Shown here: positions 1,735-62,157 of the stretch, one piece after another
Position numbering within the stretch: the first letter of the stretch is position 1
Layout: each line of letters opens with the position of its first letter
Origin: a virus
Length of the DNA: 64,000 nt
Virus record (IMG/VR): IMGVR_UViG_3300014874_000001
Span: 1 to 64,000 of that record
Direction: 5' to 3' (one strand)
Notes under the pieces: model-generated
The model's input: the letters and a program-made list of their open reading frames with translations, nothing else
The model's database searches: none
Told to the model about the DNA's origin: nothing
Program-made: the position numbers and the translations under genes

Positions 1735-1834
1735 GGAAGGGCAGAACATTTCGCACCCTTCATCTTCCCAAGCTCCGCAGCGAAGGCGTATCTTAACCCT
1801 CGCTTAGAACCAAAAAAACTTGCGGAGACACGAA

Positions 1835-2371
1835 ATGCCCCTAGTTATACTGGAAGGAGCCGATGGCTCCGGGAAGAGTACTCTTGCCACTCGACTCCTA
1901 AAGGGTACCGGACACCCTACCATACTCATAAAGAGATCGGGACCGCCCGGCAACGTCGAGACGCTGGTCTTCCAATCGGAGTGGATCGCACAGCAGTCCC
2001 GGCTCGGTCTAAACGTCATCGCCGATCGCCATCCGATTATATCCGAAGCGATCTATGCTCCGGTAGTTCGGAAGGTACCTGGACCGCACTGGGGTCCTGA
2101 GGACGCCTACAAGGCTCTCAAGCATCAGAGAGTTATGCTCGTCTACTGCCGGACCGACGACGTAACCCAGAGGGGGTCGTCCCACGTCGAGGACCAGATG
2201 GAGGGGGTACACGAGTACTACCAGGACCTCGTCAAGGAGTACGACCGCTGGATGGACTATATCCAGGATAAGGGAGTTCTCTTCTACCAATACAACTATT
2301 GGAACGATCCCAAGGCAGAGAACGTCACGGGGGTCATTCGTAACTTCTGGGAGGGAAAATGGACCGTCTAG
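1835..2371 (+). CDS. dNMP (thymidylate-type) kinase
   Basis: ATG 1835 with GGAGA at 1824-1828. MPLVILEGADGSGKSTLATRLL is a Tmk-type P-loop. The TTG 1820 extension was not used. Confidence 0.75.
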   Translation: MPLVILEGADGSGKSTLATRLLKGTGHPTILIKRSGPPGNVETLVFQSEWIAQQSRLGLNVIADRHPIISEAIYAPVVRKVPGPHWGPEDAYKALKHQRVMLVYCRTDDVTQRGSSHVEDQMEGVHEYYQDLVKEYDRWMDYIQDKGVLFYQYNYWNDPKAENVTGVIRNFWEGKWTV

Positions 2372-2955
2372 AGTCAATCTTCGAACACAAACTCATGTCC
2401 TCGGCAAACTTCCGCGCCGTCCAGCGGAAGCACGGCCTCATCCTCTGTCCTGAGAATCTATCCGCCGACTGGAAGACTCGCGAAGGAGCCATGGAACTGC
2501 ACAAGGGAATCCACTGGATCGGCCTGGAACTAGCCGAGTTTCTCAGCGCTCTACCATCCGAGCAGGAAGAGGAGCTAGCCGACGTGCTTCACTTTCTCGT
2601 AGAGTTCTGTATCCTCTGCGGATACGATCACACGGTGATCGACGGCTACGAGGACCGGCTCGATATCGTCTTCAACTCTTCAATCAACGACCCTCTGGTC
2701 TTCGCCGACTGCGATACGAACGCCCGGTTCACGATCGTCTCCGCGCTCTACGTCGCCGACATGATCAAGAACAAACCCTGGAAGCAGACGCTCAAGACCG
2801 AACGTGACGAGGACGACTTCAAGGCGCGGGTCCGCGGCCTCTGGTACTGGTACGGAGCGACTTGTCGGACCTTCGGCATGACCCCGCAGAGCCTCTTCGA
2901 CCAGTTCGTCCGGAAAGAAGAAATCAACTACAACCGAGTAGCGACTGGAGTATGA
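2359..2955 (+). CDS. All-alpha NTP pyrophosphohydrolase (dimeric dUTPase/dCTPase / MazG-like)
   Basis: Acidic helix EEELADVLHFLVEF and a KPWK motif, about 200 aa. GGGAGGG lies upstream of ATG 2359. Confidence 0.6.
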   Translation: MDRLESIFEHKLMSSANFRAVQRKHGLILCPENLSADWKTREGAMELHKGIHWIGLELAEFLSALPSEQEEELADVLHFLVEFCILCGYDHTVIDGYEDRLDIVFNSSINDPLVFADCDTNARFTIVSALYVADMIKNKPWKQTLKTERDEDDFKARVRGLWYWYGATCRTFGMTPQSLFDQFVRKEEINYNRVATGV

Positions 2956-3144: not shown

Positions 3145-3942
3145 ATGCTGACCCGCCTGATCCGCCACCTAATCCGACTCGAACCCGCATACCGAGGGGG
3201 ACTCTACAAGTTATTCAACGGTCTGACGTGGGAAGAGAAAAGGCTCCCGTCGTTGACCTACGACGACATCGGTTACAAAAACAACAAGGACGGACAGCTC
3301 CGAAAGAACTACATCAACGAGGAGGAGCTGGACCGCGTAGACAGCATCCTGAAGAAGCGTTCTGGAGGGCGTGGACATCACAATACCTCAGTTGCATTGG
3401 CCTTCCGAGGCGAGAAGAAGGCAAGCAAGTCCCAGGGGTGGTGCTTACTTTCGCTCGTCGTAAGCCGGATGAAGAGCCCGGCCCGCGAGATCGTTGAGAT
3501 TCACTACCGCTCGACCGAGGCACTCTTCAAGTTCCACGCCGACCTCGTACTTATGCAGTGGGTCTTCAACCGGCTCTCGCTCGATCCGGACGCCGTGAAG
3601 TTCCGGTTCGCGAATATCCATCTCTCCGGCGTATACCTCCCCGTCCTCTTTCAGTACTGGGACCAGGAGGACTTCATTGACTTCGTCGACAAGAACGACC
3701 GCGACTTTCTCAAGCGAGGACTCCGCTGGTTCCTGCGATCCTGCTATACGAAGGACCAATGGTTTCCCTTCTCGCCCGAGAACGTCATGCATAAGCTTAA
3801 CTGGGAACGGGGCGATCCCAGGACGGCCGTGAAAATACTTGACCCGTTGTTCCGGAAATACGGCTATGATTTGCCGAAGTTACACCACCAAAAAGACTCG
3901 TACGTAACCAGACGCAAGAAAAGCGTCGAGGAGGAAGAATGA
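3145..3942 (+). CDS. Highly divergent thymidylate-synthase-fold protein, function unknown
   Basis: ELDRVDSILKKRSGGRGHHNTSVALAF...QGWCLLSLVV...VEIHYRSTEALFKFHADLVLMQW mirrors the TS core layout (DQ..SRR..W / PCH..QF / RS.D / (N/D)). Cys is retained, with Asp at +33 after a 2-residue insertion. Confidence 0.5.
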   Translation: MLTRLIRHLIRLEPAYRGGLYKLFNGLTWEEKRLPSLTYDDIGYKNNKDGQLRKNYINEEELDRVDSILKKRSGGRGHHNTSVALAFRGEKKASKSQGWCLLSLVVSRMKSPAREIVEIHYRSTEALFKFHADLVLMQWVFNRLSLDPDAVKFRFANIHLSGVYLPVLFQYWDQEDFIDFVDKNDRDFLKRGLRWFLRSCYTKDQWFPFSPENVMHKLNWERGDPRTAVKILDPLFRKYGYDLPKLHHQKDSYVTRRKKSVEEEE

Positions 3943-4298
3943 AGCTCTGCCTAATAGGTTCTACCAAGTTCATGGAACTCTACGTCAAGGCGAACCGCGA
4001 TCTCACTCTTCGAGGACACATCGTCTATACCGTAGCAACCATCTCTACCAAGTCCGCGCTCGCCGATACGGAATCCACGCCGATCACTACCGAGCAGAAG
4101 GATGTCTTGGATCTAGTTCACCTCCGGAAGATCCAGGAGTCGGACGCCTGTGTTCTCGTGACGGACGACACCGGCTACTTCGGCTACTCGACTAACCGTG
4201 AGCTCATCTGGGCACAGATGAACAAGAAACCGATCTACACGATCCACAACATGGACCTCGCTGGGGAGATTGTCGACCCGAAGGAGCTGGCACTATGA
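3939..4298 (+). CDS. Nucleoside 2-deoxyribosyltransferase-like / DUF4406-like protein
   Basis: 119 aa. MKLCLIGS...HLRKIQESDACVLVTDDTGYFGYSTNRELIWAQMNKKPIY fits the NDT/Rcl-like pattern (..sD.vv....G..g.s.G...E...A...gKpi.). ATGA overlap with the upstream gene. Confidence 0.5.
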   Translation: MKLCLIGSTKFMELYVKANRDLTLRGHIVYTVATISTKSALADTESTPITTEQKDVLDLVHLRKIQESDACVLVTDDTGYFGYSTNRELIWAQMNKKPIYTIHNMDLAGEIVDPKELAL

Positions 4299-5278
4299 GA
4301 CCTCTTTGCATATACCACGGGAACTGCGCGGACGGATTCGGAGCGGCTTGGGTTGTCTGGAGATACTACGGTGGTCTAGTAGATCTCTTCCCTGGAGTCT
4401 ATCAGAAGGACCCGCCCGACGTATCGGACCGCCACGTGATCATGGTTGATTTCAGCTACAAGCGCGAGGTCATGCTGGAGATGGCCGAGATGGCAAGAAC
4501 GGTTTTGGTTTTAGACCACCACAAAACAGCTAGAGAAGATCTAAAGCCGGATGGGGGATTGGGAATCCTCGCTGTGGAGCGCGAACGTACCGGACAGCAG
4601 TGGCAGCGCTTCTGCGATAAGGATTGGGACCCCGATCAACGAGGGGTCTTTGTTCTATTCGACATGGATCGATCGGGTGCAGGTATCGCCTGGGACTTCT
4701 TCAACCCCGACGAGAAGCGGCCGACGCTCCTAAATCACATCGAGGATCGAGACCTCTGGAGGTTTAAGCTCAAAGGAACTCGAGAAATCCAGGCCACTCT
4801 CTTCTCGTATCCATACGACATGGAACTCTGGGATCGTCTTATCAATGACGTGAACATGTTCGGGACCGAGGAGATGGTCACCGAAGGTACGGCGATCGAG
4901 CGGAAACATCACAAGGACCTCGATGAGCTTCTCCGTATCTGCACTCGGCCGATGCGATTCAAGATTCCCAACATCATGAACACTCTCGTCGTTCCGGCCG
5001 CGAACCTGCCTTATACGATGGTCTCGGACGCGGGGAACATGCTCTGTCGCCGAACGCTCGACGGACAGCCGACCGATCCAGCGGCCGGTCTGAGTCCCGT
5101 GAAGCATCCGTTCGCCGCCTGCTACTACGACGGCAAGGACGGTAGGAACTTCAGCTTACGGTCCGAGGATGAGGGCGCGGACGTGTCGGCGATCGCGAAA
5201 CTGTATGGCGGAGGCGGACATGCCCACGCGGCCGGTTTCCGCGTGCCGTATGCTCAGCTCGCTCAGTTCGAGCCATGA
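4295..5278 (+). CDS. DHH/DHHA1 family phosphoesterase (NrnB/RecJ-like)
   Basis: IYHGNCADGFGAA (motif I), LVLDHHKT (DHH), DRSGAG, C-terminal GGGGHAHAAGF (DHHA1 GGGH). ATGA overlap. Confidence 0.8.
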   Translation: MRPLCIYHGNCADGFGAAWVVWRYYGGLVDLFPGVYQKDPPDVSDRHVIMVDFSYKREVMLEMAEMARTVLVLDHHKTAREDLKPDGGLGILAVERERTGQQWQRFCDKDWDPDQRGVFVLFDMDRSGAGIAWDFFNPDEKRPTLLNHIEDRDLWRFKLKGTREIQATLFSYPYDMELWDRLINDVNMFGTEEMVTEGTAIERKHHKDLDELLRICTRPMRFKIPNIMNTLVVPAANLPYTMVSDAGNMLCRRTLDGQPTDPAAGLSPVKHPFAACYYDGKDGRNFSLRSEDEGADVSAIAKLYGGGGHAHAAGFRVPYAQLAQFEP

Positions 5279-5457
5279 ATCGCGTAGACATCCTCGCACA
5301 GATTCGACGCTTTCGACTCCGCGCGGAGTCTGTGGCAAGTACAAAGATCAAGATTGAGGGAGTCGGAGTCATGACCGAGGCGGAAGCTATCGCGTGGATC
5401 GAGAGACAGTCTGAAATTCAGTGTCCTACTTGCGGACATCCTTGGGAGAAAGCATGA
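5275..5457 (+). CDS. Hypothetical small protein with CPTCGH motif
   Basis: Track ORF. ATGA overlaps at both ends. Confidence 0.5.
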   Translation: MNRVDILAQIRRFRLRAESVASTKIKIEGVGVMTEAEAIAWIERQSEIQCPTCGHPWEKA

Positions 5458-5849
5458 GGATCGCGATCACCGGCGTACCTCGCGGGGGCAAGACTTATAC
5501 GGCGAAGCTCCTCAGCGCCGTCCTCGGAATCCCCATGAACCATACGGACGACGTAATGCACCTGGAGTGGAGCGAGGGCAGCCGCGTCGTCAGCGAGTGG
5601 TTCGACCGCAACGATCCGTGGATCATCGAAGGCGTCGTCGTGCCTCGTGCGCTTCGGAAATGGAAAGCCCGACTCGAAGCCGAGAATGCCGACGAGTCAC
5701 GTCTCAGTACGCCGCCCTTCGATAAGATCATCGTCGTTCGCTACCCGCGAGACACGCTCAACTCCGGACAGAAGATCATGGGTAAGCAGGTTCTCGGTCT
5801 CATCGATACTTACAGAGACTGGATAGGAGAGAGGTGGATAGAGATATGA
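5454..5849 (+). CDS. Small P-loop kinase/NTPase (131 aa)
   Basis: ATG 5454 (GGGAGA upstream, ATGA overlap). MRIAITGVPRGGKTYTAKLL is a Walker A resembling the N-termini of phage dNMP kinases. Confidence 0.6.
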   Translation: MRIAITGVPRGGKTYTAKLLSAVLGIPMNHTDDVMHLEWSEGSRVVSEWFDRNDPWIIEGVVVPRALRKWKARLEAENADESRLSTPPFDKIIVVRYPRDTLNSGQKIMGKQVLGLIDTYRDWIGERWIEI

Positions 5850-6211
5850 TAATGCTAAACTTCCCGTTGGAGGCACTACAGACAATCGCGGCGGACAAGC
5901 TTCCACGCGTGCGAGTCGCGTTCCCTCAGGGGTCACAGATTCTGCATCTAGGCTCGGGTGGCCCGGAGTTCCCGGTGTGTCTCTCGGTCCTCGCGCCGAT
6001 CCGGCCGAAGAACGCCGATGGCACGATCAAGGAACTACAACCTCACGAGATTGCCGTGATGGAGTTTGCGGTCGTCACGCCGGGCGACGTGGTACCCGAA
6101 GGCTACATCTTCCGCGCTCCGGTTCGGACTCCCCAGGGATTGATCTTCCTGTTCGAGAAGAAGATGACGGGGCCGTCGATCCTCGTTCCACCGGGAGTAG
6201 GACGGGCATGA
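5846..6211 (+). CDS. Hypothetical protein (121 aa)
   Basis: ATG 5846 after GGAGAGAGG, with ATGA overlap to the upstream stop. Confidence 0.55.
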   Translation: MIMLNFPLEALQTIAADKLPRVRVAFPQGSQILHLGSGGPEFPVCLSVLAPIRPKNADGTIKELQPHEIAVMEFAVVTPGDVVPEGYIFRAPVRTPQGLIFLFEKKMTGPSILVPPGVGRA

Positions 6212-7038
6212 GAACCTACGGCAGCTTCGCTACGGCAATTGCGTCGGTTAGTAACCAGATGCGGGACGCTTCGTTCGAGGTCAATGGACTTAAGTGGCAG
6301 TCGATCGACGTATCGACGAAACCTGAGATGAAGATGCGAGAGTGTCTGAACGTCTCGTTCCAGGTCAACACACAGGGGATCGACGCCTGGTCGCACTACC
6401 ATAACGATATCAAGCCGAATTGGCCGTGGGCCGAAGATCATTTCCAGGAGCGAGTCGCGGGCGAGCCTCTGAACCCCGGAGAGCAATGGAAGAACTGGCC
6501 TTGGGCTCTATCGGCCGATAAGTTCCGGACCGAAGGCGAGAAGTTCAGCCATACCTACATGGAACGGTACTGGCCAAAGCTCGCGGGCGACGACGAGCAC
6601 TCGACCAAGGGATTCCTGCGAGGTATTCGATACCCTTACGGAGACCTCAATGATGTCGTCAATCATCTCCTGGGAGATCCACTTACCCGACAAGCGTATC
6701 TCCCTGTCTGGTTCCCGGAGGACACCGGCGTGGTCCATGGCGAGCGCGTTCCGTGTAGCCTGGGCTACCACTGGATTCTCCGTAACGGATATCTCCACAC
6801 CACGTATTACATCCGATCGTGCGACTTCTTCCGACACTTCCGCGACGACCTATACCTATCAATCAGGCTCTCGATCTGGCTCCTCCGACAGCTTCAAGAG
6901 ACAGAACAGGAGTCGGATCACCGTCGCTGGAACGACGTGAAACTCGGCTTCTTCACGTTTCATTGCGTCTCTCTCCATATGTTCATAAATGACTGGAACA
7001 GACTCTATGGCAAAGCGAGTCCTCAAGATTCCCGATGA
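6208..7038 (+). CDS. Thymidylate-synthase-family pyrimidine C5-transferase, dCMP-hydroxymethylase-like (Asp at specificity position)
   Basis: ATG 6208 (ATGA overlap). RQAYLPVWFPED...VPCSLGYHWILRNGYLHTTYYIRSCDFFRHFRDDLYL. Counting from the Cys: R+9, RS+20/21, D+23, FR+28/29, D+31. The track N-terminal extension 5977-6207 was rejected. Confidence 0.75.
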   Translation: MRTYGSFATAIASVSNQMRDASFEVNGLKWQSIDVSTKPEMKMRECLNVSFQVNTQGIDAWSHYHNDIKPNWPWAEDHFQERVAGEPLNPGEQWKNWPWALSADKFRTEGEKFSHTYMERYWPKLAGDDEHSTKGFLRGIRYPYGDLNDVVNHLLGDPLTRQAYLPVWFPEDTGVVHGERVPCSLGYHWILRNGYLHTTYYIRSCDFFRHFRDDLYLSIRLSIWLLRQLQETEQESDHRRWNDVKLGFFTFHCVSLHMFINDWNRLYGKASPQDSR

Positions 7039-7366
7039 CCTCACGTTCCAGCGAATCTACGACCGTGAGCGTAGCGGTCTGCGGTGCGTCGAGTACCAGT
7101 GCGAACGCTATCCGGACCTACGAATCCGGTCGCAGGGTCCGCCCGCCAACTGGTGGGACTGGACGGCCTACTACGTCGTGGATTCCGCGAACAACGTCGA
7201 GGGGTTCAGTAGTCTTCGCCGAGCTTACACGTTTCTGATGTCGAGACCGAGGAGAGTCGTACGTGACAAGAATATCCCGAGACGAGATGCTGATGGACAT
7301 CGCGTGGGTCGTAAGGCTGAGAAGTACGTGCCTCAGGCGTCAGGTCGGGGCCGTCCTTGCCGTTGA
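6989..7366 (+). CDS. Hypothetical protein; the 3' part overlaps the dCMP deaminase start
   Basis: Track ORF. Alternative start ATG 7007 (MAKRVLKIPDD...). The last ~35 codons are Arg-rich and overprint the next gene. Confidence 0.4.
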   Translation: MTGTDSMAKRVLKIPDDLTFQRIYDRERSGLRCVEYQCERYPDLRIRSQGPPANWWDWTAYYVVDSANNVEGFSSLRRAYTFLMSRPRRVVRDKNIPRRDADGHRVGRKAEKYVPQASGRGRPCR

Positions 7367-7778
7367 CGGTCGGGTCCTATCCTCAGGGTACAACGGAGCA
7401 CCCTCAGGCTTACCGCACTGTAATCCTACTACCTGTTCGGCGGATCGGCCCTGCGTCGATACCGTTCACGGAGAAGCCAATGCAATCGCTTTTGCCGCCC
7501 GCTACGGAATCCGAGTCGAAGGAGCCACCCTCTACACAACTGCCAGTCCCTGTAGGGCCTGTGCAATCCTTGCCATCAACGCCGGAATCGTCCGAGTTGT
7601 CTACGATACAGAGTACCGGGACACCAGTCCCATTGCGCTACTCAAACAAGCCGGAGTACGAATCGAACGATGGTCCCTTAATCATTCCCCTCCCGAGGTG
7701 TCGACTCTGCCAACGTCCAGTAGAATCTATCCGAGTGGAACCGGACGTGGGGAAGGGGATGCTGAAGGTAACGGCTAG
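7263..7778 (+). CDS. dCMP deaminase (ComEB/cd type)
   Basis: RISRDEMLMDIAWVVRLRSTC, VHGEANAI (HxE) and SPCRACA (PCxxC) zinc motifs. GTG start follows GAGGAG. Confidence 0.85.
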   Translation: MTRISRDEMLMDIAWVVRLRSTCLRRQVGAVLAVDGRVLSSGYNGAPSGLPHCNPTTCSADRPCVDTVHGEANAIAFAARYGIRVEGATLYTTASPCRACAILAINAGIVRVVYDTEYRDTSPIALLKQAGVRIERWSLNHSPPEVSTLPTSSRIYPSGTGRGEGDAEGNG

Positions 7779-7863
7779 TTGCCATGCTCGACAGGAGACG
7801 GTCTGGGTAGAGTTACAGGACCTCCTAAACTCAATCGCCCTCGAACCTGGAGAAGCGTTCTAG
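7633..7863 (+). CDS. Possible small zinc-ribbon protein overlapping the deaminase 3' end (start uncertain)
   Basis: C-terminal part of track ORF 7357..7863: ...PRCRLCQRPVESIRVEPDVGKGMLKVTASCHARQETVWVELQDLLNSIALEPGEAF. Third-position GC is higher than in the two competing frames by my count. Its TAG overlaps the polymerase GTG (TAGTG). The TTG 7633 start is a guess. Confidence 0.35.
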   Translation: MRYSNKPEYESNDGPLIIPLPRCRLCQRPVESIRVEPDVGKGMLKVTASCHARQETVWVELQDLLNSIALEPGEAF

Positions 7864-10412
7864 TGCCCTCGCTGAATCCCGCCTGTACGAAGTGTCCGCT
7901 ACATAAAACAACGGACGGTACCGTCTGTCTGGCAGGCGAGGGGCCGCGCAACGCGACGGTCATGGTCGTTGGGGAAGCTCCGGGCCGCGAAGAAGAGAGG
8001 ACTGGCCGCCCGTTCATGGGTGCCAGCGGACAGAAACTCAGAGCGGAGTTACGGAAAAATGGATTGGATGGGGATGTTTTTATTACTAACGTGGTACGCT
8101 GCCGTCCTCCTGATAATCGTACACCGGCCGCTGCGGAGATCAAGGCGTGCCGAGAGTACTTGGACTACGAGATCGCGCGCATTAAGCCCGAGATTGTCGT
8201 TTCGCTTGGGGCCACGCCCACGAAAGCGCTCTTCAAAGGGGTCGCAGCGGTAACGAAGCACCACGGCAAGCTAATTCCCCCGGACAAACACCCGTTCACA
8301 GGGTACGTCTCCTACCACCCAGCGGCGATGCTCTACGATCCGGGCAAGGAGGTAGACTTCCAACAAGACATCGCTCGGCTCGCGCGGATCGCCCGGGACG
8401 AACCCCCGCCCGACAATACGCTGAACTGGGCAATTCTCCGTCGAGGGAACCTCCAGAAGTTCCTCCGTGAGTTTCGCGAGGCGCCTGAGTTCTCCTTCGA
8501 CCTGGAAACCTCTGGCCTTTTCATGCACGACGGACAGGGGTGGATTAACTGCGTCGGGATCGGGCTGCAGAACCGCACATGGGTTATTCCACGAATGCGA
8601 CCGGGCTGGTATCCGTCGCGAGCGAACTCGAAAAAGCTCAAGTTCCACCGAGGCTCCCCGTGGTGTCGGGGGAAGTCCTTCGAGTTTCTCATGCGGATGA
8701 TTATCGGCATGGCGATCCGAGGGAACAAAGGCGTTATCGCTCAGAACGGCAAATTCGATAACCTGTGGCTCCAGCGCTACGTCAACCGTCGGTTTAAGAT
8801 TACGTTCGATACGATGCTCGCGAGTCATACGCTCGATGAGAATGAAGAGCATGATCTTAAGTCGATGTCCCGCAAGTATCTCGACGTGCCCGAGTATGAT
8901 CTGACGACGGCCGAGAAGCGCGGCATTGTCGATCCGATGAAGCTGTTCCAGTATAACGCTCGGGACTGCGGCTATACGCTTCGGCTAAAACACGTCTTCC
9001 AGAAGAAGCTGGAGGAAGAGGAGAGCCAGTTCCGGCTGTTCTATGAGCTCGTCATGCCAGCCGTCCGGGCAATGGAGGATATCGAGCTAGAGGGCAAGAC
9101 GATGAACGTCACGGCCCTAGAAGAACTCGGACTCGACCTTCTGTCCCGCGAGATCAAGCTTAAGCATGACCTCAAGGCCCTCGTCGGTGGAAAGGAGGTT
9201 AACTGGAATTCGCCGAAGCAGGTCGGTGCGATTCTCTATGGGGACCTCGGGATCAAGTGCGTAGCGTTTACGGCTAAGGGCGCGCCGTCTACGGGCGAGA
9301 CCGCGATCCTAGACCTCAAGGGTAAGCATCCAATCGTCGACAAACTCATCGAAGTCCGCGAAGTCTCGAAATTCAGGAGTACGTATGTTATCGGATTCCA
9401 GAAACTCATGGTCGAGGACAAGCTCTACATTTCATACAAAATCCACGGAACAGTTACAGGTCGATATGCCTCGCGTATACACTCGATCCCACGCGACGGG
9501 TCCGTTCGGAATCTGGTTATCGCGCCACCGGGCTGGAAATTTTTCCAAGCGGATATCTCTCAAGCCGAACTCCGAATCATAGCCCAGATGTCGGGCGACC
9601 TCGAAATGAGAAAGTGCTTTACCGAGGGAATAGACATCCACTGGCGGACGATGATGTTCGCGATCGCGGCCGGGTATATCTCGGGAGAGTACGCCCAGCG
9701 GGTAATCGACACAGCCGAGAAGACCACCGGAAAGAAAATGCGGATATCGGAAGCGTGCGACGAGCTACTGAAGATAGGCCACGAGGCCGCGATCAAGATT
9801 TGGCCTGGTTGGAAAGAGGCCCGGAAGAAAGCGAAGGCGATCAACTTCGGATACGTCTATGGAATGTACGAGAAGAAGTTCATACTCACCGCGAAAACCA
9901 AATACGGTTGGGAGCCAACATGGGACGAGGCACACGCTTGCAGGGAAGGCTACTTTCAACTCTACAGCGATTTACCCCGCTGGCACGACAAGCAAAAGAA
10001 ACTCGTGAAGCTGAACGGTTTCGTGAGGACCTTCTTTGGCCGTCGCAGACGGCTACCGGGGATCGAATCGAGCGAGAAGGGACTTCGCATGGAAGCCGAG
10101 AGACAGGCGATCAATTCTCCGGTTCAAGGTACGATTGGTGACTGGAAGGCGGCCGTCCTCGTCGAAATCCACGAGACCCTCGATCGCGATAAGCTCAGGC
10201 TAGTCGGAGAACACCACGACGCGCTCCTTGGCCTGATTCGCGACGGCTGCGAAGACGAGATGCTGCCGCAGGTAATCAAGATTATACGCAAGCCTCGGTT
10301 GCTTCAGAAGTTCAAGGTCCGCATGGAGATACCGATGGACGGAGAGATCGAGATAGGTCCGTGGGGCGCCGGGAAAGCATACAAGCTTCCAATTACAAAG
10401 AAAGTCGCGTAG
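7863..10412 (+). CDS. Family-4 uracil-DNA-glycosylase domain fused to 3'-5' exonuclease and family A DNA polymerase
   Basis: UDG4: CTKCPL, GEAPGREEERTGRPFMGASG, VVRCRPPDNRTPAAAEIKAC (4 Fe-S Cys), HHG, YHPAAMLY. Exo: FSFDLETSGL, AQNGKFDNLWL, YNARDCGYT. Pol: FFQADISQAELRI (A), RKKAKAINFGYVYGM (B), GEHHDAL (C). Start set at GTG 7863 because the 7779-7862 extension has low GC3. Confidence 0.9.
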   Translation: MPSLNPACTKCPLHKTTDGTVCLAGEGPRNATVMVVGEAPGREEERTGRPFMGASGQKLRAELRKNGLDGDVFITNVVRCRPPDNRTPAAAEIKACREYLDYEIARIKPEIVVSLGATPTKALFKGVAAVTKHHGKLIPPDKHPFTGYVSYHPAAMLYDPGKEVDFQQDIARLARIARDEPPPDNTLNWAILRRGNLQKFLREFREAPEFSFDLETSGLFMHDGQGWINCVGIGLQNRTWVIPRMRPGWYPSRANSKKLKFHRGSPWCRGKSFEFLMRMIIGMAIRGNKGVIAQNGKFDNLWLQRYVNRRFKITFDTMLASHTLDENEEHDLKSMSRKYLDVPEYDLTTAEKRGIVDPMKLFQYNARDCGYTLRLKHVFQKKLEEEESQFRLFYELVMPAVRAMEDIELEGKTMNVTALEELGLDLLSREIKLKHDLKALVGGKEVNWNSPKQVGAILYGDLGIKCVAFTAKGAPSTGETAILDLKGKHPIVDKLIEVREVSKFRSTYVIGFQKLMVEDKLYISYKIHGTVTGRYASRIHSIPRDGSVRNLVIAPPGWKFFQADISQAELRIIAQMSGDLEMRKCFTEGIDIHWRTMMFAIAAGYISGEYAQRVIDTAEKTTGKKMRISEACDELLKIGHEAAIKIWPGWKEARKKAKAINFGYVYGMYEKKFILTAKTKYGWEPTWDEAHACREGYFQLYSDLPRWHDKQKKLVKLNGFVRTFFGRRRRLPGIESSEKGLRMEAERQAINSPVQGTIGDWKAAVLVEIHETLDRDKLRLVGEHHDALLGLIRDGCEDEMLPQVIKIIRKPRLLQKFKVRMEIPMDGEIEIGPWGAGKAYKLPITKKVA

Positions 10413-60914: not shown

Positions 60915-61375
60915 CACCAGCACATCAGTGGTTAGCGATCGCGTTCTTTGTCGGAGTCGGCCTCATTCTCGGAGCGCTGGTCTTATGGAAGCGTACGATC
61001 TGGGCAAAGAAGAAGGACCTCAGTGGAGGGTTCCTGACCGAGCGGGAGTTGAACTCACGAATGGGACCGCCCCCCGATCTGCGTGAGAGGATGGGTCCTT
61101 CACCCGAGCTACTGCATGAGCGCTGGGAGGACTTCGAGCGCGCGAAGCGAACGCCGCGACGCGGACCGCTCGCTGTCGATCTAGCGCAAGAGCAGAAGCG
61201 CAGAGAGCGTGATCCACTCGACGAGAAGGGCTTCTATGGTCCCGGGGGACTCATGGGAGTCGGCGCGCTCGGGTCAATCGCGAACGAGCACGTGCATCAC
61301 TCGCCACCGGACTGCTCACCCTCCGACTCGGGATCGAGCGATAGCGGGAGCTGCGATTCGGGCGGTGGAGAATGA
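60911..61375 (+). CDS. Membrane-anchored protein with Ser/Asp/Gly-rich C-terminus
   Basis: WLAIAFFVGVGLILGALVLW TM segment. ATGA overlap. Confidence 0.55.
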   Translation: MTPAHQWLAIAFFVGVGLILGALVLWKRTIWAKKKDLSGGFLTERELNSRMGPPPDLRERMGPSPELLHERWEDFERAKRTPRRGPLAVDLAQEQKRRERDPLDEKGFYGPGGLMGVGALGSIANEHVHHSPPDCSPSDSGSSDSGSCDSGGGE

Positions 61376-62157
61376 AGACCGAAGTACTCGACCACGGCTA
61401 CATCCGTCTGGTATCGTATACGCAGCCAGTACCGGACGGGCTTGATAAGCATGGATGGGCCATGAGAGATCGGAGCTGGACGGGCGATCTGGAGATCGTA
61501 CGGGCTGCGCGCGTCTCGTACAACGCCGACTGGAGAAAGAACGACCTCAACCTCGGCCAGTCTTCCGACGAGAAGCTGATCGATTTCCTCTGGAGAAACA
61601 AGCATACCAGTCCGTTCGAGGCGATGACGTTCTCGTTCGAGGTGCAAGCTCCGATCTTCGTCTTTCGCCAGTGGCATCGGCATAGGACGCAGAGCTACAA
61701 CGAGGTCTCGGCTCGTTACACTGAGCTGCCCGAGCTGTTCTATGTTCCGGACGCAGACCAGGTACGGGCTCAATCGAAGTCGAACAAGCAGGGCCGAGAC
61801 GAGGAGCTGGACGGGAGGTCGGTGACTCTCTTTCGCCAACAGCTGACGGAGGAGTCGTCCTCGCAGTTTAACTCGTACCAGTTCTGGCTCGCCCAAGGCG
61901 TAGCAAGGGAGCTGGCGCGGCTCTACCTACCGGTGAACACGTACAGCCGGATGTACGCAAGCGCAAATCTCCTTAACTGGTTTCGGTTCCTAACCCTCCG
62001 CGCGGACCTACATGCCCAGTACGAGATCCGGGTCTACGCCGAGGCGATGGTCGCGATGCTAGCGAGCGTCTGTCCGATCGCGGTCACGGCCTTCCTCCGA
62101 TACAGATTCGACGTGACCGACGTAGACGCCGAGCGGGAGCGGAATACCGGGCTCTGA
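61372..62157 (+). CDS. thyX: Flavin-dependent thymidylate synthase ThyX
   Basis: FRQWHRHRTQSYNEVSARY (RHRxxSxxxxSxR ThyX motif), 261 aa. Confidence 0.9.
   Translation: MKTEVLDHGYIRLVSYTQPVPDGLDKHGWAMRDRSWTGDLEIVRAARVSYNADWRKNDLNLGQSSDEKLIDFLWRNKHTSPFEAMTFSFEVQAPIFVFRQWHRHRTQSYNEVSARYTELPELFYVPDADQVRAQSKSNKQGRDEELDGRSVTLFRQQLTEESSSQFNSYQFWLAQGVARELARLYLPVNTYSRMYASANLLNWFRFLTLRADLHAQYEIRVYAEAMVAMLASVCPIAVTAFLRYRFDVTDVDAERERNTGL

Follow-up and report, generated by a model that had tools for sequence, protein, structure and literature searches.

Replacement of deoxycytidine (dC) in phage DNA by way of thymidylate synthase (TS)-fold enzymes that act on deoxycytidine monophosphate (dCMP) is a kind of system known from phages T4 and Xp12 and already exploited in metavirome screens. 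Within this fold, Asp in place of Asn177 (E. coli ThyA numbering) signifies cytosine specificity, and the N177D and N229D substitutions turn true TS enzymes toward dCMP. The T4-type dCMP hydroxymethylase is recognized by an acidic residue, Asp or Glu, at the third position ahead of the catalytic Cys (Cys−3), a Ser-x-Tyr motif (Ser94, Tyr96) and the lack of a C-terminal tail; the D145N mutant of the T4 enzyme is inactive, and its Arg177 holds the glutamate tail of folate in the tail-less protein (PMC6400193). Exchange of Asp169 for Asn is the signature of flavin-dependent 5-hydroxylation (PMC13326640), and Ser167 and Arg126′ mark a preference for deoxyribose, with Ala and Lys at these positions in the ribo-specific cytidine monophosphate (CMP) enzymes of the MilA/BcmA type (PMC5175136). 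A simple rule further assigns a hydroxymethyl product to enzymes with an acidic residue at position 143 and a methyl product to all others. Here we analysed a 64,000-nucleotide (nt) stretch of viral DNA (positions 1 to 64,000 of IMG/VR record IMGVR_UViG_3300014874_000001; hereafter the window), which encodes a TS-like protein at 6208–7038. Our reading, held with slightly better than even confidence, is that this protein belongs to a distinct and large phage clade acting on dCMP and not on deoxyuridine monophosphate (dUMP), with a non-reductive product and a place in a dC-replacement pathway.

Base and sugar specificity of the TS-like enzyme

An earlier note on this DNA had predicted a TS-family enzyme with Asp 31 residues after the catalytic Cys and, on that ground, a dCMP-specific C5 transferase. 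Read straight from the sequence, Asp214 indeed lies at Cys183+31, and the motif spacing given there, C-x8-R-x10-RS-x-D-x4-FR-x-D, was confirmed residue by residue from Cys183 of VPCSLGY through Arg192 (+9), Arg203-Ser204 (+20/+21), Asp206 (+23) and Phe211-Arg212 (+28/+29). The hhalign program aligned RSCDFFRHFRDD without gaps to RSNDVVFGFRND of T4 gp42, so that Asp214 falls on T4 Asp179; this reproduced the gap-free alignment proposed in the note, whose gp42 segment proved exact, and the full-length gp42 sequence used in the present work equals PDB 1B49 at 246 of 246 residues. With HMMER, Asp214 fell on the corresponding MilA Asp and, in the N229D mutant of L. casei TS (1NJC), on residue 229; with hhalign it also matched the specificity Asp in Xp12 TS. 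Asp214 is thus brought onto E. coli Asn177 by four independent alignments, and in the comparisons with ThyA-type TS, T4 gp42 and Xp12 the Asp was not displaced from the specificity position.

Conservation in the family was scored over 116 close homologues and 87 diverse members, and Asp214 was invariant in both sets (116/116 and 87/87), the diverse one including phage Muddy and a Clostridium phage. Across the two sets the invariant or nearly invariant residues were Glu81, His115, Tyr117, Arg161-Gln162, Arg180, Cys183, Arg203, Ser204, Asp206, His210, Asp214 and His257. Pro182-Cys183, Arg203-Ser204-Cys205-Asp206 and His257, the equivalents of the catalytic Pro-Cys, R166-S167-x-D169 and His207, were conserved in all 87 diverse members or nearly all. 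The deoxyribose-type residues were also kept (Ser204 in 85 of the 87, Arg161 in every one), and because of their retention a CMP specificity of the MilA/BcmA type was rejected.

The TS-like enzyme therefore probably uses dCMP as its substrate, as judged from the sequence and the predicted structure; this assignment is as well supported as such data allow, and every computational test run agrees with it. The dCMP-specific transferase of the earlier note accordingly stands, supported by Asp214, the deoxyribose-type Ser204 and Arg161, the nearest solved relatives, the gene context, and the separate ThyX for deoxythymidine monophosphate (dTMP) synthesis, which the note had correctly said to be present. 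The Asn-to-Asp rule and gene neighbourhoods of this kind are already known in the literature, so the Asp alone is not novel.

Assignment to the TS family did not follow from the standard models. The protein scored 19.8 bits against Pfam PF00303, under the gathering cut-off of 24.3, and its NCBIfam TS match was also sub-threshold, the weak match being to the methanogen-type TS model TIGR03283. PHROG family phrog_160 (“thymidylate synthase”) matched it with E = 1.2e-24, and precomputed PF00303 matches are present in many close homologues. Its best sequence match in the PDB was the CMP hydroxymethylase MilA (E = 2e-6), followed by the flavin-dependent dCMP hydroxylase HY126. An AlphaFold (AF2) model had a mean predicted local distance difference test (pLDDT) score of 78 and a predicted template-modelling score of 0.80, and the best 50 Foldseek PDB matches listed for it were all TS-family proteins, led by MilA (4e-10) and HY126 (5e-9). 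Given phrog_160, Foldseek and the conservation of Asp214, the match is not due to chance, and on the predicted model the protein belongs to the TS superfamily (TS fold, PF00303 sensu lato).

The start codon of the gene is well placed: the ATG at 6208 overlaps the stop codon of the upstream open reading frame (ORF) as ATGA, GGGAG lies ~11 nt 5′ of it, and the homologues share the same initial Met (MR(T/I)..F). A longer ORF from GTG 5977 would run into the upstream gene. The protein database contains 3,308 homologues, and the label “thymidylate synthase” is attached to family members from Brevundimonas, Pseudomonas, Serratia, Yersinia, Streptomyces, Microbacterium, Gordonia and Mycobacterium phages (the last being Muddy gp46).

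Active-site signatures and the reaction product

The part of the active site that would serve folate differs from that of canonical TS enzymes. The TS-like protein stops ~17 residues past His257-x-Phe, and MAFFT alignment showed no C-terminal tail anywhere in the clade and a tail in E. coli ThyA, Xp12 TS and Achromobacter 83-24 TS. The folate motif D-[LV]-F-[LV]-G-L-P-[FY] is absent, the clade having D-F-F-R-H-F-R-D instead, with the invariant His210 in place of Gly173. In ThyA, 12 residues lie within 6 Å of C5; among them, Leu143 and Gly173 give way in the clade to an invariant Arg and an invariant His, respectively. Arg212 aligns with T4 Arg177 and is Arg in 71 of the 87 members. Asp206, the equivalent of Asp169, is invariant in the clade, which ruled out a flavin-dependent 5-hydroxy-dCMP synthase.

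In a survey of 80 IMG/VR loci with a TS-like gene, each taken with 8 kb on either side, and in the window, jackhmmer seeded with the Xp12 dihydrofolate reductase (DHFR) and an E. coli FolA sequence found no DHFR, although small or very divergent genes may escape such a search. The lack of a C-terminal lid, of the canonical folate motif and of an associated DHFR speaks for an outcome that avoids a reductive hydride step, and the match of Arg212 to T4 Arg177 points the same way. On balance we favour such a non-reductive outcome, yielding a hydroxymethyl group or a related adduct, by a small margin over 5-methyl-dCMP. Judged by its sequence, the clade does not fall cleanly under any product signature in the literature, and for this reason we give the product as estimates instead of one name: a hydroxymethyl group leads at somewhat below an even chance, a methyl group and some other substituent are each distinctly less likely and equal to one another, and a small remainder falls to a substrate other than dCMP. 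The earlier note had thus rightly left the choice between methyl and hydroxymethyl open.

Several observations weigh against a hydroxymethylase-like enzyme in a dC-replacement pathway. Cys−3 is Arg180 in 87 of 87 members in place of the T4-type Asp or Glu, and Asp is found there in T4, MilA, a ViI-like TS homologue and an Agathobaculum phage homologue. The analogy with phage ViI leads us to regard the ViI-like protein as a dUMP hydroxymethylase. The residue two before the Tyr, Ser94 in T4, is an invariant His, and the simple 143 rule would label the enzyme a 5-methyl-dCMP synthase. The AF2 model is weak at residues 90–145 and 172–177, which include folate-side loops, and that the enzyme depends on folate at all is itself something we infer. 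The tight linkage of a deaminase to the TS-like gene is that of phages with 5-methylcytosine (5mC). A Pfam scan of ~30 ORFs found no glycosyltransferase or other gene for tailoring a hydroxymethyl group, with the proviso that small or divergent genes may escape it, and the literature searched contains no report of a modified base in a cultured relative (PMBT14, Muddy, actinobacteriophages and cassette-bearing siphoviruses). Around the invariant His the sequence reads Ser114-His115-Thr116-Tyr117, with hydroxyl residues at Tyr−1 and Tyr−3; the equivalence published for the T4 motif is a structural one, and the model has low confidence here. Glu179 (Cys−4), considered as a stand-in for T4 Asp145, was rejected, being E, G or K across members.

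Comparison with T4 gp42 (PDB 1B5E, 6A9A) illustrates how the likeness claimed in the earlier note holds in part. The two proteins share the TS fold, the Cys nucleophile, Arg at Cys+9, R-S-x-D (RS at +20/+21, Asp at +23), F-R-x-D (FR at +28/+29) with Asp at Cys+31, an Arg177-type Arg for the folate glutamate tail and the absence of a C-terminal tail. The likeness does not extend to the hydroxymethylation residues: T4 Asp145 is replaced by the invariant Arg at Cys−3, Ser94 by His, Arg-Arg by Arg-Gln and Tyr218 by Phe. Pairwise BLASTP gave no meaningful alignment of the TS-like protein with gp42; only profile comparison produced a match, with E ~1e-2 to 6e-4. MilA (PDB 5B6D) is the best PDB match in sequence and structure and has the specificity Asp and an Arg at Asp169+3, but it carries Ala and Lys against Ser204 and Arg161 here, has Asp at Cys−3 and is a bacterial enzyme of an antibiotic pathway. 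The flavin-dependent 5-hydroxy-dCMP synthases (RB69 gp48, DLP3 gp80 and HY126 AfhB; 9IQC, 9IQU) share a tail-less TS fold and Phe for Tyr209, are among the best Foldseek matches and act on dCMP, the predicted substrate of the TS-like enzyme as well; they differ by Asn in place of Asp169 and by Glu at 143. In Agathobaculum phage AB434P2 (locus L092, 1282–1944), a gene named “deoxyuridylate hydroxymethyltransferase” has Asp both at the Asn177 position (GFPYD) and at Cys−3; this is the signature of a dCMP and not a dUMP hydroxymethylase, so that the gene is probably mis-annotated.

The TS homologue of Xp12, a 5-methyl-dCMP synthase, together with those of Achromobacter 83-24 and Pamexvirus, provides the other comparison. 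Like the window, these systems have Asp in place of Asn177, a deaminase gene that comes next after that of the TS, and a PRA-PH-type pyrophosphatase encoded close by; they also share a phage context of complete dC replacement, which for the window is a prediction. It is possible, although we consider it unlikely, that the TS-like enzyme is likewise a 5-methyl-dCMP synthase, with an Xp12-like function derived from another TS lineage, 5mC either replacing cytosine or, as 5-methyl-dC, passing through the deaminase to thymidylate. Asp177 without an acidic residue at Cys−3 is the pattern used to predict 5-methyl-dCMP products, the Xp12 TS likewise has no Leu at the Cys−3 position (it has Asn), and the cassette kinase looks thymidylate-kinase-like. 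Moreover, the TS-like gene is followed directly by the deaminase in 54 of the 80 loci, as is the TS gene in Xp12, and five of seven deaminase-linked metavirome TS homologues assayed yielded 5-methyl-dCMP (bioRxiv 10.1101/2024.12.05.627091). However, the Xp12 enzyme is canonical and ThyA-like, retaining, as does the Achromobacter TS, the folate motif (DLFVGLPYD in Xp12) and the C-terminal tail (long and ending PEVIE in Xp12) that the TS-like protein lacks, and it is just 27% identical over one third of the TS-like protein (~90 residues). In Xp12 the TS, deaminase and DHFR genes are adjacent and there is no second TS-fold gene of the kind described below. The window deaminase is nearer to T4 cd than to its Xp12 counterpart, and the ThyX of this phage makes a 5mC-to-T route redundant, which counts against a 5-methyl-dCMP synthase.

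The conserved cassette and its second TS-fold protein

The TS-like gene belongs to a conserved cassette (Table 1) that consists of a deoxynucleoside monophosphate (dNMP) kinase, a nucleoside triphosphate (NTP) pyrophosphatase, a second TS-fold protein (the partner), the TS-like enzyme, a dCMP deaminase and a polymerase in which a uracil-DNA glycosylase (UDG) domain is joined to PolA, with ThyX encoded elsewhere. Among the 80 loci the deaminase was found in 54, PolA in 52, the partner in 49, the kinase in 44 and DHFR in none. The same order recurs in Yersinia phage P744, Brevundimonas phage Polewnik, a Manatee Spring virus, a gut-metagenome contig, Clostridium phage P21 and Muddy.

Table 1. Coordinates and characteristics of the cassette and related genes in the window.
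Feature	Coordinates	Strand	Remarks
TS-fold, cytosine-type C5-modifying enzyme (predicted)	6208..7038	+	276 amino acids
Key residues of the TS-like enzyme			Cys183, Arg180 (Cys−3), His115-Thr-Tyr117, Arg161-Gln162, Arg203-Ser204-Cys-Asp206, His210, Arg212, Asp214, His257-x-Phe259
Catalytic Cys183 codon	6754..6756	+	equivalent to E. coli Cys146
Base-specificity residue Asp214 codon	6847..6849	+	equivalent to E. coli Asn177, T4 Asp179
Second, cryptic TS-fold protein (partner)	3145..3942	+	265 amino acids; conserved Cys100, Arg122-(Ser/Thr), Glu125, Asp133
P-loop dNMP (thymidylate-kinase-like) kinase	1820..2371	+	would phosphorylate modified dCMP
All-alpha NTP pyrophosphohydrolase (dUTPase_2/MazG/PRA-PH type)	2359..2955	+	candidate dCTPase/dUTPase: dCMP supply, dCTP exclusion
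DHH/DHHA1 phosphoesterase	4295..5278	+	accessory, in only 7/80 related loci
Small P-loop protein	5421..5849	+	in 2/80 related loci
dCMP deaminase	7263..7778	+	HxE and PCxxC zinc motifs; Pfam 3e-20, PHROG 5e-50
Family-4 UDG domain + 3′-5′ exonuclease + family A DNA polymerase, single protein	7779..10412	+	start may be 7863 (public call)
ThyX flavin-dependent thymidylate synthase	61372..62157	+	RHRxxS motif, phrog_85 E = 2.7e-57

By analogy, the cassette resembles a dC-replacement pathway, its kinase, pyrophosphatase and deaminase making up the enzyme set with which T4 and Xp12 replace dC. The pyrophosphatase of dCTPase type (acting on deoxycytidine triphosphate, dCTP), the dNMP kinase and the dCMP deaminase are shared with T4; unlike T4, this cassette has a second TS-fold gene, and no glucosyltransferase was found among the ORFs scanned. 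Neighbourhoods that combine an Asp177-type TS with a deaminase, PRA-PH, PolA and an exonuclease are strongly enriched in restriction-resistant, cytosine-modified virome contigs (bioRxiv 10.1101/2024.12.05.627091), an enrichment that lends indirect experimental support, by analogy, to cytosine modification in such phages. ThyX also occurs in MW202777, where it adjoins the TS-like gene, and its presence in both phages indicates that dTMP is made independently of the TS-like enzyme.

The partner, which the earlier note had not picked up, is by its predicted structure a second TS-fold protein of the same cassette. Neither the window protein nor 29 members of its family had a Pfam match, phmmer and hmmsearch returned no PDB match, hhalign of the partner against the TS-like profile was not significant, and the only PHROG to match was one of unknown function; the homologue in phage P744 carries the label “pyrimidine hmase synthase”. 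Kinship to TS became visible only through structure prediction with Foldseek and through an iterated hidden Markov model (HMM), which weakly reached the core of the Xp12 TS (E = 0.004). The AlphaFold model, built from an alignment of 29 homologues, was confident (pLDDT 90.4), and its top 50 Foldseek PDB matches were all TS-family proteins with T4 dCMP hydroxymethylase first (E = 2e-6). Against a viral structure library the model first matched uncharacterised proteins from PMBT14 and others; TS and gp42 came next. The conserved Cys (56 of 57 members), Arg (57/57), Glu (55/57) and Asp at Glu+8 (56/57) are in register with Cys146, Arg166, Asp169 and Asn177 of ThyA.

An exhaustive profile search gathered 367 representative clusters of the partner family. 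In 49 of the 80 loci the gene immediately precedes that of the TS-like enzyme, abutting or overlapping it in 28 of these 49; it is present in P744, Polewnik, MW202777, Clostridium phage P21 and, as gp47, in Muddy. In MW202777 (locus L004) an unannotated partner ORF at 5893–6906 (HMM E = 3.5e-25) precedes the gene named “pyrimidine hmase”. In Muddy (locus L008) the hypothetical protein gp47 at 5123–6016 is a divergent partner (iterated HMM E = 2e-9) and the hypothetical protein gp45 at 6789–7331 is a dCMP deaminase, 45% identical to that of the window; the whole cassette is therefore present in Muddy.

Two TS-fold genes side by side raise the prospect that their products cooperate, as a heterodimer or in consecutive steps, to make a C5-substituted deoxycytidylate that is neither 5-methyl nor plain 5-hydroxymethyl. 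In such a scheme, Arg180 and His210, which would lie close to C5, would serve to bind another co-substrate or nucleophile. We consider this doubtful, roughly on a par with the methylase alternative. It is consistent with the TS fold of the partner, its best match being the T4 enzyme, with its conserved Cys, Arg, Glu and Asp, with the close spacing of the two genes, and with the presence of the pair in proteobacterial phages and actinophages as well as in a Clostridium phage. It is also consistent with the replacement of ThyA Leu143 and Gly173 by invariant Arg and His, and with an Arg-Arg pair in the partner where the TS-like enzyme has the invariant Arg-Gln. However, Arg-Gln also occurs in single-gene homologues with the hydroxymethylase-type Asp at Cys−3, sequence comparison relates the partner to TS only weakly, and in 25 loci, from large phages of low GC content that carry UvsX-like and gp41-like genes, the TS-like gene has no partner within 8 kb, which indicates that the TS-like enzyme is probably competent alone. 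Similarly unlikely is the broader proposition that two TS-fold proteins, joined in a heterodimer or acting one after the other, produce a C5-modified deoxycytidylate through a mechanism unlike both T4 hydroxymethylation and ThyA/Xp12 methylation, possibly giving an undescribed DNA modification.

An ordinary TS converting dUMP to dTMP, as GenBank has it for Muddy gp46, Serbin, PMBT14 and others, would find in the annotated dUTPase, deaminase, thymidylate synthase and thymidylate kinase a complete route from dCTP to deoxythymidine triphosphate, and in TIGR03283 a weak sequence match, but is very improbable against the Asp in place of Asn177 in all 87 members, the turning of true TS enzymes to dCMP by N177D and N229D in the literature, the co-occurring ThyX of this phage and MW202777, the Pfam score below threshold and the missing C-terminal tail, which dTMP formation requires.

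The surroundings of the cassette vary. The DHH/DHHA1 and small P-loop genes sit between the two TS-fold genes only in this phage and its closest relatives. The deaminase ORF was missed by the public ENA/Logan calls, which contain two ORFs in other frames instead (7007–7366 and 7480–7863), both lacking family matches, and the UDG-exonuclease-PolA fusion follows the deaminase in related loci also. The 25 partner-less loci (including L037, L040, L043, L045, L048, L052 and L087) form a second context of the TS-like gene, on low-GC contigs of up to 250 kb that carry a UvsX-like recombinase, a gp41-like helicase and a GMP-reductase/IMPDH-like gene, with no partner, deaminase or PolA within 8 kb. Serratia phage Serbin (NC_074756) has proteins in common with the phage 9g group, lacks the queuosine-synthesis cluster of that group and has the TS cassette (PMC6509536); it may show the swap of one DNA-modification module for another. 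In the window the coding strand and the GC/AT skew switch at ~18 kb, and minus-strand ORFs of up to 963 amino acids between ~21 and 52 kb look like a structural and packaging module.

Proposed pathway and its significance

From the fold, the conserved residues and the gene linkage we infer a substrate, a product and a flux as follows. Cys183 would attack C6 of the cytosine ring while Asp214 recognises and protonates N3/N4, and C5 would then attack the one-carbon unit of methylene-tetrahydrofolate. The folate would be contacted by Asp206 and Arg212, the latter standing in for the absent C-terminal tail as Arg177 does in T4 gp42. The methylene intermediate would be resolved without hydride transfer, giving 5-hydroxymethyl-dCMP or an adduct much like it, and catalysis would fall to Arg180, His115 and His210 instead of T4 Asp145 and Ser94. 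In the cell, the NTP pyrophosphatase would convert dCTP to dCMP, and the TS-like enzyme, possibly jointly with the adjacent partner, would modify it. The kinase would re-phosphorylate the modified dCMP, and the UDG-PolA protein would be the polymerase that incorporates the modified dCTP into phage DNA, where the modified base most likely replaces cytosine. Deaminase and ThyX would supply dTMP by a separate route.

The clade breaks the residue rules for methyl, hydroxymethyl and hydroxy products and has a second TS-fold gene, which makes it well suited to testing what decides the product in enzymes of this fold and a candidate for supplying a new modification. Its interest lies in an abundant group of enzymes outside all published signatures, a coupled cryptic TS-fold protein, and cultured members, the therapeutic phage Muddy among them, that are annotated as plain thymidylate synthases. 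If correct, the two-TS-fold cassette would be widespread, with >3,300 TS-like homologues and 367 partner clusters. Base replacement in phages defeats restriction and some CRISPR systems and is a source of enzymes for biotechnology. Should the product be 5-hydroxymethylcytosine or 5mC, a large mis-annotated group of siphoviruses would have non-canonical DNA, including Muddy, phages of Gordonia, Serratia, Pseudomonas and Brevundimonas, and hundreds of metagenomic genomes, with consequences for phage therapy, host-range prediction and sequencing.

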